Origin: Escherichia coli
Lineage (GTDB): Bacteria; Pseudomonadota; Gammaproteobacteria; Enterobacterales; Enterobacteriaceae
Reading direction: 5' to 3' (one strand)
Length of the DNA stretch: 43,104 nucleotides
NCBI RefSeq assembly: GCF_003334385.1
Contig: NZ_QOWN01000036.1
The notes beneath the pieces were generated by a model. It was given only the letters and a program-made list of their open reading frames with translations. It searched no databases and was not told the origin of the DNA. The position numbers and the translations under genes were made by a program. Of the stretch, positions 72-39,760 are shown piece by piece. The first letter of the stretch is position 1. Each line of letters starts with the position of its first letter.

Positions 72-107
72 GATACTACGCTGGATACTACAACTAACTA
101 TGTTAGT

Positions 108-124
108 GGTGGGTCGTGCAGGAT
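108..124 (-). repeat. 17-bp copy of the 3' end of tRNA-Lys (tggtgggtcgtgcagga) in the lysT-valT spacer
   Basis: Exact match of 108-124 to 207-223 (the 3' end of the lysT gene), not followed by the rest of a tRNA. Confidence 0.6.
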
Positions 125-206
125 GACTCGACTTCGTCTCGCCCTTCGGGCCGTTGCTCATGCAACGTTATCCTTCACGTTTTACTACCGCTTCCACCTT
201 AGCGAT

Positions 207-282
207 TGGTGGGTCGTGCAGGATTCGAACCTGCGACCAATTGATTAAAAGTCAACTGCTCTACCAACTGAGCTAACGACCC
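207..282 (-). tRNA. lysT: tRNA-Lys (anticodon UUU)
   Basis: Reverse complement is GGGTCGTTAGCTCAGTTGGTAGAGCAGTTGACTTTTAATCAATTGGTCGCAGGTTCGAATCCTGCACGACCCACCA, 76 nt, anticodon loop CTTTTAA, CCA encoded. Confidence 0.93.
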
Positions 283-322: not shown

Positions 323-360
323 ACGGCGGCATATATTACTGATTTCAGACTTGAGCGCAA
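323..360 (-). promoter_or_regulatory. Candidate sigma70 promoter for the lysT-valT tRNA operon
   Basis: On the minus strand: -35 TTGCGC (plus 355-360), 16-nt spacer, -10 TAATAT (plus 333-338), then a GC-rich discriminator (gccgccg) typical of stringently controlled tRNA promoters. Pattern-based only. Confidence 0.3.
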
Positions 361-404
361 CAAAAATTTCGATGTAGATCACTCAACTGCTTATGATTCG
401 CACG

Positions 405-438
405 ACACGACCAGAAATAATGCGACTTCTGGTCGTGT
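405..438 (-). terminator. 12-bp perfect stem-loop immediately downstream of the cpoB stop
   Basis: acacgaccagaa (405-416) and ttctggtcgtgt (427-438) are exact reverse complements around a 10-nt loop, 9 nt past the cpoB stop; no clear U-tract, so it may be a 3'-end stabiliser rather than a canonical intrinsic terminator. Confidence 0.3.
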
Positions 439-446
439 GTTATGCA

Positions 447-1238
447 TTACATCGCGTTCAGACGTTTTTGTGCCTGTTTAGCGCCATCAGTACCAGGGTA
501 TTTACTGATAACCTGCTGGTATACGGCTTTCGCTTTTGCGGTGTCACCTTTGTCCTGCATGATGACGCCGACTTTAAACATCGCATCTGCAGCCTTTGGT
601 GACTTCGGATAGTTTTTCACTACCGAAGCAAAATAGTACGCCGCATCATCTTTTTTACCCTTGTTGTAGTTTAACTGACCCAGCCAATAATTGGCGTTTG
701 GCAGGTAAGTTGAATCAGGGTAATTTTTGATGAAATTCTGAAATGCCACCATTGCGTCATCCTGGCGGGATTTATCCTGCACCAGCGCAATAGCTGCATT
801 GTAATCCGTGTTTGCATTACCGCTTTTCACCGGCGCGCCAGCATTCGCAGTACCAGCATCAGCTGTCGGCGTCGTTGATGCCGCCGCACCGCTTTGATCG
901 CCGCTGGTTGATTGCGCCGCTGCACCACCGCTGCTGAGGCTGTCGATCTGCAACAGGATCTGCTTTTGCCGCTCCACGACCTGATTCAGTTGATACTGAT
1001 TTTCCTGAATCTGACCACGCAGGGAATCAATATCGGATTGATTATCAGAAAGTTGTTGCTGGAGTTGGGTTAAAAGCTGGCTGTGAGCATTAGAAATACG
1101 CTCAAGTTGAGTGACGCGGTCTTCGACCGAGCCTGAGCCGACACTACTGATTGGTGCCTGAGCAAAAGCGGCCCAGGGGGCCGCTATACCAACCAGTAAC
1201 GACAGACTCAATAGTTGATGTCTGAAGTTACTGCTCAT
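447..1238 (-). CDS. cpoB: Cell-division coordinator CpoB (YbgF), periplasmic TPR protein
   Basis: 263-aa ORF with signal peptide (MSSNFRHQLLSLSLLVGIAAPWAAFA), coiled-coil Q-rich region and C-terminal TPR-like repeats; last gene of the tol-pal cluster. Confidence 0.95.
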   Translation of the reverse strand: MSSNFRHQLLSLSLLVGIAAPWAAFAQAPISSVGSGSVEDRVTQLERISNAHSQLLTQLQQQLSDNQSDIDSLRGQIQENQYQLNQVVERQKQILLQIDSLSSGGAAAQSTSGDQSGAAASTTPTADAGTANAGAPVKSGNANTDYNAAIALVQDKSRQDDAMVAFQNFIKNYPDSTYLPNANYWLGQLNYNKGKKDDAAYYFASVVKNYPKSPKAADAMFKVGVIMQDKGDTAKAKAVYQQVISKYPGTDGAKQAQKRLNAM

Positions 1239-1247
1239 GCAATTCTC

Positions 1248-1793
<546 letters not shown>

Positions 1794-6084: not shown

Positions 6085-6182
6085 TTTACATCCCGGTAAT
6101 GCAACAAAAGTTAGAGCTTTTAAACGCTGCTACTATACGCGCGCGATTGAGGTTTGGGAATGAGGGCAAGTTAAGGGAGCGT

Positions 6183-6218
6183 AAAAATTTATGGGCCTGG
6201 AGCGGCCCATAATTTTTT
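6183..6218. terminator. Stem-loop with T/A runs on both sides between ybgE and ybgC; candidate terminator of the cyd operon
   Basis: tatgggcc-tggagc-ggcccata (6190-6211) is an 8-bp stem, with aaaaa before and tttttt after on the plus strand, so both strands see hairpin plus U-run. Confidence 0.45.
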
Positions 6219-6233
6219 AAAGAGAATTCTGAT

Positions 6234-17905: not shown

Positions 17906-18076
17906 CCGTAGGCCTGATAAGACACGTTAAACGTCACATCAGGCATCGCTTGTCGGATGCGGCGCTAGCGCCTTATCCGACCTACATTGGTGGTCCCGTA
18001 GGCCTGATAAGACGCGTCAGCGTCGCATCAGGCTTCAATTGCCGGAGAAGGCGATAATGCCTTATCCGGTCTACAG
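17906..18076. repeat. REP/BIME cluster in the sucB-sucC spacer
   Basis: Multiple gtaggcctgataagacgcg... and cggatgcggcg... / ccttatccg palindromic units within a 274-bp intergenic gap. Confidence 0.6.
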
Positions 18077-22130: not shown

Positions 22131-22310
22131 CGTGATCCCTTAAGCATCTTTTTTATGCTTACTTCGCCGTGGATACTACCACGCACAGTGATGTGCGTGC
22201 CGGGGTTCACTTGCGAGCTCTTGTCTACGTAGTGGCTCGCGAAGGAACCTTTAAAAACTGTCTTAGTGTCAGGGGCAGTTTTTAAAGATTTCCTGCATTT
22301 CTTTGTTACG

Positions 22311-38095: not shown

Positions 38096-39760
<1,665 letters not shown>

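Follow-up and report, generated by a model that had tools for sequence, protein, structure and literature searches.

Location of the stem-loop between cpoB and lysT

The window, by which is meant the whole stretch of 43,104 nucleotides of Escherichia coli DNA that was analysed, is given on the strand opposite to that of the K-12 map. K-12 coordinates were obtained by subtracting the window position from 780836, with the stop of cpoB (447 = 780389) and the start of lysT (282 = 780554) as anchors. The beginning of the window encodes, on the minus strand, a partial valT (1-71) and lysT (207-282), the tRNA-Lys(UUU) gene that is the first gene of the tRNA operon. The coding sequence of cpoB (ybgF) is found at 447-1238, also on the minus strand, with the stop codon TAA at 449-447, and pal and then tolB lie beyond it in the same orientation. 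The 3' untranslated region of cpoB contains a stem-loop at 405-438 (minus strand) and the lysT promoter lies just beyond this hairpin on the same strand, which agrees with the first-pass annotation. The promoter core (333-360, minus strand), read from the sequence, consists of the -35 element TTGCGC (360-355), a 16-nt spacer and the -10 element TAATAT (338-333), followed by a GC-rich discriminator, and is an invariant block in 72 sequences. The start of lysT transcription was inferred as the seventh nucleotide after TAATAT, at about window position 327. Open reading frames antisense to the hairpin, such as 393-602 (plus strand), were treated as mechanical and not as genes.

Two matches to other structured RNA families are found close by. 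The lysT-valT spacer (107-275, minus strand) matches the Rfam family RtT RNA (RF00391) with 58.8 bits, above the gathering score; inside this match the tRNA-Lys 3' end is repeated over 18 nt at 107-124 (TGGTGGGTCGTGCAGGAT, plus strand), and unrelated sequence follows. The junction of pal and cpoB (1209-1347, minus strand) gives a full-length match to the Rfam CpoB/ybgF thermometer (RF02782) with 142 bits and an E value of 5e-30.

The inverted repeat and its fold as RNA

The arms ACACGACCAGAA (405-416) and TTCTGGTCGTGT (427-438) are 100% complementary across 12 nt with a 10-nt gap between them, and the perfect 12-bp stem with a 10-nt loop that had been described is thus borne out. The stem begins at the ninth nucleotide after the stop codon, leaving 8 nt between stop and stem, and the earlier placement 9 nt past the stop is therefore correct. 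As cpoB-sense RNA the stem is lengthened by G·U and U-A pairs to 14 bp and the loop is reduced to 6 nt. The hairpin has a folding energy of -20.4 kcal/mol (z -7.6) and none of 200 shuffled sequences folded as well; in 81 nt of context the values are -30.8 kcal/mol and z -4.3.

In length and stability, and in its position right after a stop codon, the stem-loop is comparable to that of an intrinsic terminator. An intrinsic terminator, however, has a U-tract of about 7-8 nt, whereas the tail after the cpoB stem is CGUGCGAAUC, with two U among the first 8 nt (CGUGCGAA), and the absence of a U-run noted in the first-pass annotation is confirmed. No call was made on the hairpin in a scan for consensus promoters and terminators.

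Like the REP and BIME elements, the hairpin is an extragenic palindrome at the 3' end of an mRNA and would block exonucleases. Those elements have many dispersed copies with a shared consensus, in contrast to the cpoB hairpin, which is found once per genome. It is present as a single copy in all 5426 of 5426 complete E. coli genomes (median one place per genome), with an identity of 99% or more in 5377. A second copy of GACCAGAA-N10-TTCTGGTC was sought in the window with up to 3 mismatches and was not found. Membership in REP or another repeat family was therefore ruled out. A REP-like palindrome, GTCGGATGCGGCGCTAGCGCCTTATCCGAC, does occur in the window at 17952-17981, with a sequence unrelated to that of the cpoB hairpin.

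The covariance models of Rfam 15, run with E values up to 10, gave no match over 405-438; the models that did match close to it are those of tRNAs, RtT and the CpoB/ybgF thermometer. The 5' arm shares the 7-nt string CACGACC with the 3' end of tRNA-Lys, which was judged too short to carry meaning.

The window contains three perfect inverted repeats of at least 12 bp with loops of 3-40 nt, compared with 0.11 expected from 300 first-order Markov simulations of the window. The three repeats, the cpoB hairpin included, amount to about 30 times the chance expectation; the other two are found at 38156-38189 (TATTTATGCAAT/ATTGCATAAATA, 10-nt spacer) and at 22249-22287 (A/T-rich, 15-nt spacer).

Mapped 3' ends of cpoB RNA

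The 3' ends of the cpoB transcript that are available in published tables coincide with the hairpin. The Term-seq study of Adams et al. 2021 (PMC7815308, Supplementary file 1) reports a 'primary' 3' end of cpoB at 780434, with a score of 12432 in LB at OD 0.4 and 5719 in M63; it is missing from the list for LB at OD 2.0. The sequence printed for this end terminates in ...UUUCUGGUCGUGUCGU, 3 nt beyond the base of the stem, at window position 402 (minus strand). [quoted passage not shown] Here the R statistic is 0.86-0.96, which corresponds to few 3' ends within the next 67 nt. With the stem ending at 780431, the mapped ends (780433-780436) are found at positions +2 to +5 from the stem.

A second strong 3' end is found inside cpoB at K-12 779672-779674. 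It lies at a hairpin resembling an intrinsic terminator, GCGGCCCCCUGGGCCGC followed by UUUUG, at about 1162-1184 (minus strand), 76 nt into the gene in the region encoding the signal peptide. Adams et al. give it an intrinsic score of 5.16 and a Rho score of 1.49 that is not significant, and in TRS it is labelled an 'alternative primary' terminus of pal. This hairpin looks like an attenuator built in between pal and cpoB.

Conservation among the Enterobacteriaceae

A total of 80 loci were gathered through their CpoB proteins, of which 70 distinct sequences were included in the alignment, designated A1. The hairpin element is carried by 80 of the 80 loci. The six inner pairs, GACCAG/CTGGTC, show no variation in 70 of 70 sequences, and five pairs, the four outer ones and the one closing the loop, have changes on both sides. 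Pair 12-45, for example, is GC in 34 sequences, AU in 21 and GU in 11. Overall 92.5% of the cells are paired, compared with 36-58% after displacement of the 3' partners by 1-3 columns. The stem is thus kept through compensatory changes among the 70 sequences. The tail is poor in U throughout, its first 8 nt containing 0-3 U in all 70 sequences. The spacer between cpoB and lysT is well conserved over its whole length and the core of the stem is as invariant as the block formed by the -10 element and the discriminator.

The non-Watson-Crick cells comprise 61 G·U and a single A·C, and in 60 of the 70 sequences the better fold is that of the cpoB-sense strand and not of the antisense one. Both observations point to RNA of the cpoB strand as the conserved molecule, and such a ratio is unexpected for duplex DNA or a cruciform. 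The hairpin is a real, conserved RNA stem-loop that marks the mature 3' end of the tol-pal-cpoB mRNA. The proposal in the first-pass annotation that it protects or defines this end is supported by the mapped ends and by the compensatory changes.

The invariance of the inner pairs exceeds the constraint needed for a plain block to exonucleases. The loop drifts among the 70 sequences, with positions C26 and G27 invariant or nearly so. The conserved inner stem and these two loop residues, together with the location at the extreme 3' end of the mRNA, would fit a docking site in the 3' untranslated region, where a ProQ-like RNA-binding protein or a nuclease tunes cpoB or pal beyond passive protection. 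Such a function is very improbable, as the literature and datasets searched do not link ProQ, Hfq or a small RNA to the cpoB 3' untranslated region, the hairpin does not match an Rfam family, and other families use unrelated sequences.

Hairpins after cpoB in other families of the Enterobacterales

The first protein search gave Enterobacteriaceae only, and the representatives at 50% identity included insect symbionts. The named outgroup loci were obtained in a second protein search with P0124; loci from Yersinia and Serratia were not in the sample.

Strong hairpins with unrelated sequences were found just after the cpoB stop in Pectobacterium carotovorum (-21.4 kcal/mol, z -4.8), Hafnia alvei (-25.2 kcal/mol, z -6.9), Proteus vulgaris (-19.5 kcal/mol, z -4.1) and Pragia fontium (-38.9 kcal/mol, z -7.0). 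These four hairpins span about -131 to -53 relative to the inferred lysT start, with their cores at roughly -120 to -64. The first 8 nt of their tails contain 1-4 U, none of them a canonical U-tract. The position of the hairpin is thus fixed while its sequence turns over, which is good evidence of a structural role as RNA.

Pantoea sp. retains the 6-bp core GACCAG/CTGGTC in a weak fold (z -0.7). Erwinia tracheiphila keeps the arrangement of cpoB and lysT and has no significant hairpin after cpoB. The same is true for the lineages L082, L083/84 and L086, where lysT is still the next gene after cpoB. The existence of these lineages indicates that the hairpin is useful and not indispensable.

Overlap of the hairpin with the upstream region of lysT

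Fis-like sites upstream of lysT were scored with the loose pattern GNNYRWWWWWYRNNC, at least 13 of 15 matches being required. Three such sites are predicted in E. coli. The first, at about -70 (389-403, GTGCGAATCATAAGC on the minus strand), is situated just downstream of the hairpin. The second, at about -90 (409-423, GCATTATTTCTGGTC on the minus strand), has the form G-N13-C and covers the loop and one arm, and a weaker third site at about -111/-112 (431-445) takes in 8 outer nt of the other arm (431-438) and extends 7 nt beyond the stem. In intervals that were set from the E. coli result, 71 of 72 sequences from Enterobacteriaceae have the -70 site, 59 of 72 the -90 site and 9 of 72 the -111/-112 site. 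The end G and C of the first two sites are invariant columns in alignment A1, G47/C61 for the -70 site and G27/C41 for the -90 site.

In the other families both the -70 and the -90 site, with differing sequences, were found in Erwinia, Pantoea, Hafnia, Pragia and L086. Pectobacterium has only the -90 and -110 sites, while Proteus, L082 and L083 have only the -70 site. The chance expectation obtained by shuffling is about 0.02 per site and species, the lineages being related to each other. An A/T-centred 15-mer of the form G-N13-C at about -70 is seen in nearly every lineage examined (L083, L086, L090-L094), most of which have another at about -90.

The predicted sites at about -70, -90 and -110 are two helical turns apart, as in the Fis-dependent upstream activating sequences of tyrT and rrn P1, and the first two agree with the positions of about -71 and -91 that 15-bp sites with an A/T-rich centre take in helical register; lysT shares with such promoters a GC-rich discriminator and an A/T-rich, UP-like tract. 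The sites at lysT differ from those of tyrT and rrn P1 in being predictions made with a loose pattern. A database-derived listing (PMC10100675) gives Fis as an activator of the lysT operon, and promoters of stable RNAs typically carry Fis sites in phase (PMC8099737). A literature search on Fis at lysT was unproductive. The recurrence of the predicted sites and the listing of Fis as activator together indicate that the DNA of the hairpin probably serves in addition as a part of the activating region upstream of lysT, a feature that the first-pass annotation does not mention.

The hairpin could for this reason be seen as primarily a DNA element, a protein site or cruciform within the region that activates lysT from upstream, with the RNA hairpin as a by-product; the candidates would be Fis sites II and III or another dimeric regulator. 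The unvaried GACCAG/CTGGTC core, which is retained also in Pantoea, is in agreement with this, as are the return of Fis-like G-N13-C sites at -70 and -90, and in some cases at -110, in families whose sequences have turned over, the listing of Fis as an activator of the lysT operon and the phased Fis sites of stable-RNA promoters. The explanation is nevertheless very improbable. The ratio of G·U to A·C cells is the one expected of RNA, the 3' end of the RNA is found exactly at the stem, and Fis sites need no mutual complementarity, two independent sites being estimated to match at about 7.5 of 15 positions. In addition, the Fis motif pattern is loose and the lysT start is an inferred one. Erwinia tracheiphila has the -90 and -70 sites without a hairpin, which shows that hairpin and sites are separable.

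A dual code is a further, doubtful interpretation, in which the same 34 bp would serve as a protective 3' hairpin when transcribed to RNA and, as DNA, its arms would be Fis sites II and III of the lysT promoter. A combined constraint on RNA and DNA, if true, would leave GACCAG/CTGGTC unchanging in the Enterobacteriaceae, and the overlap of the arms with the predicted Fis-like sites may therefore explain why this core does not vary. Occupancy of lysT by Fis and polymerase, which depends on growth rate, could in that case act as a roadblock and set where the transcripts of the envelope genes end. In the known upstream activating sequences, Fis sites are not reported to serve at the same time as a 3' hairpin in the mRNA of the preceding gene. 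That the hairpin overlaps Fis-like sites is a modest addition to its role in RNA.

Origin of the 3' end

Dar & Sorek 2018 (PMC6061677) described E. coli transcripts that end just after stable stem-loops without U and are trimmed by PNPase or RNase II. The cpoB transcript resembles this class in having a stable stem-loop and a precise end directly after it without a U-rich tail, and the energy of its stem is similar to that of intrinsic terminator stems. It differs from the class in that the site has no bias of C over G downstream and in that a tRNA operon follows 122 nt beyond the hairpin, so that processing by RNase P or RNase E could replace Rho.

The cpoB hairpin probably functions as a 3' stem-loop that blocks exonucleases, with an end made downstream and then trimmed back, whereby the end of the mRNA would be fixed and stabilised. 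RNA polymerase would pass beyond the hairpin and a 3' end would be made somewhere downstream of it. Rho could be responsible, or polymerase could run into Fis or another RNA polymerase bound at the very active lysT promoter, or read-through RNA that extends into the tRNA operon could be cleaved by RNase P or RNase E. The 3'-to-5' exonucleases PNPase and RNase II would then digest the RNA as far as the stem, so that the message would end sharply 3 nt beyond it and be protected.

The location of the end argues for trimming rather than release. The RNA:DNA hybrid in an elongation complex is 9-10 nt long, and release at intrinsic terminators takes place 7-9 nt beyond the stem. The cpoB end at 3 nt past the stem is within the length of the hybrid and short of 7-9 nt, which indicates that it is not the site where polymerase releases the RNA. 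The suggestion in the first-pass annotation that the hairpin is a weak terminator is for this reason unlikely to hold as regards direct release.

An alternative is direct, non-canonical termination, where the hairpin, although no U-tract follows, causes polymerase to let go of the RNA within a few nucleotides; NusA or NusG might assist, or a polymerase stalled against Fis or the promoter complex at lysT. This would agree with the sharp end and the few 3' ends in the next 67 nt, and with the missing rut-like bias of C over G downstream. The hairpin is also situated about 44 bp upstream of the -35 element of a strong promoter, and with its front edge against the promoter complex a polymerase would have its catalytic centre at around -75 to -80, not far from the mapped end. 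Direct termination is still unlikely, considering the two U in the 8-nt tail, the end 3 nt from the base of the stem inside the would-be hybrid, and the lack of a terminator in the consensus scan. Steady-state ends, moreover, cannot separate release from trimming.

For the trimming model, the downstream event was considered further. Rho-dependent termination, another mechanism suggested in the first-pass annotation, is not supported by the evidence considered here; insulation of the tRNA promoter from upstream read-through, also suggested there, is a hypothetical function of the hairpin. The hairpin is absent from the list of Rho regions of Adams et al. (PMC7815308), an assay whose 800-nt downstream window is here swamped by the tRNA genes. 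The 122 nt before lysT contain 25 C and 26 G, thus without a rut-like bias of C over G, and none of the 40-nt windows is strongly C-rich. Rho first and trimming thereafter is consequently without support at this site. Cleavage of read-through RNA by RNase P or RNase E is a simple alternative because the tRNA operon follows, and stalling against the busy lysT promoter could be a further simple source of the primary end. The only cpoB entry in the Rho list of Adams et al. is at 779749 (window about 1087), inside the gene, with a score of 1.74 and p 1.5e-5. The entry suggests that polarity due to Rho arises inside cpoB or immediately ahead of it, and not downstream of the gene.

The hairpin is not discussed in the literature found on cpoB or ybgF in connection with lysT, terminators or ProQ. 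It is a previously uncharacterised, ordinary example of the known end-protecting stem-loops without U, already visible in public tables of 3' ends, and it overturns nothing in current understanding. It sets the point at which the tol-pal-cpoB messages, coding for a core system of the cell envelope and of division, come to an end, and it explains how cpoB, lacking a recognisable terminator, has a sharp and reproducible 3' end just 120 nt before one of the strongest tRNA promoters of the cell. The locus also provides a clean test case for two questions, the origin of stem-loop ends without U where the downstream sequence is not Rho-friendly, and the sharing of DNA between a structure at the 3' end of an mRNA and the activating region of the promoter that follows.

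Elsewhere in the window, at 6182-6219, there is a 16-nt, 94% complementary repeat (TAAAAATTTATGGGCC/GGCCCATAATTTTTTA) with A/T runs on both sides, which looks like a bidirectional intrinsic terminator.
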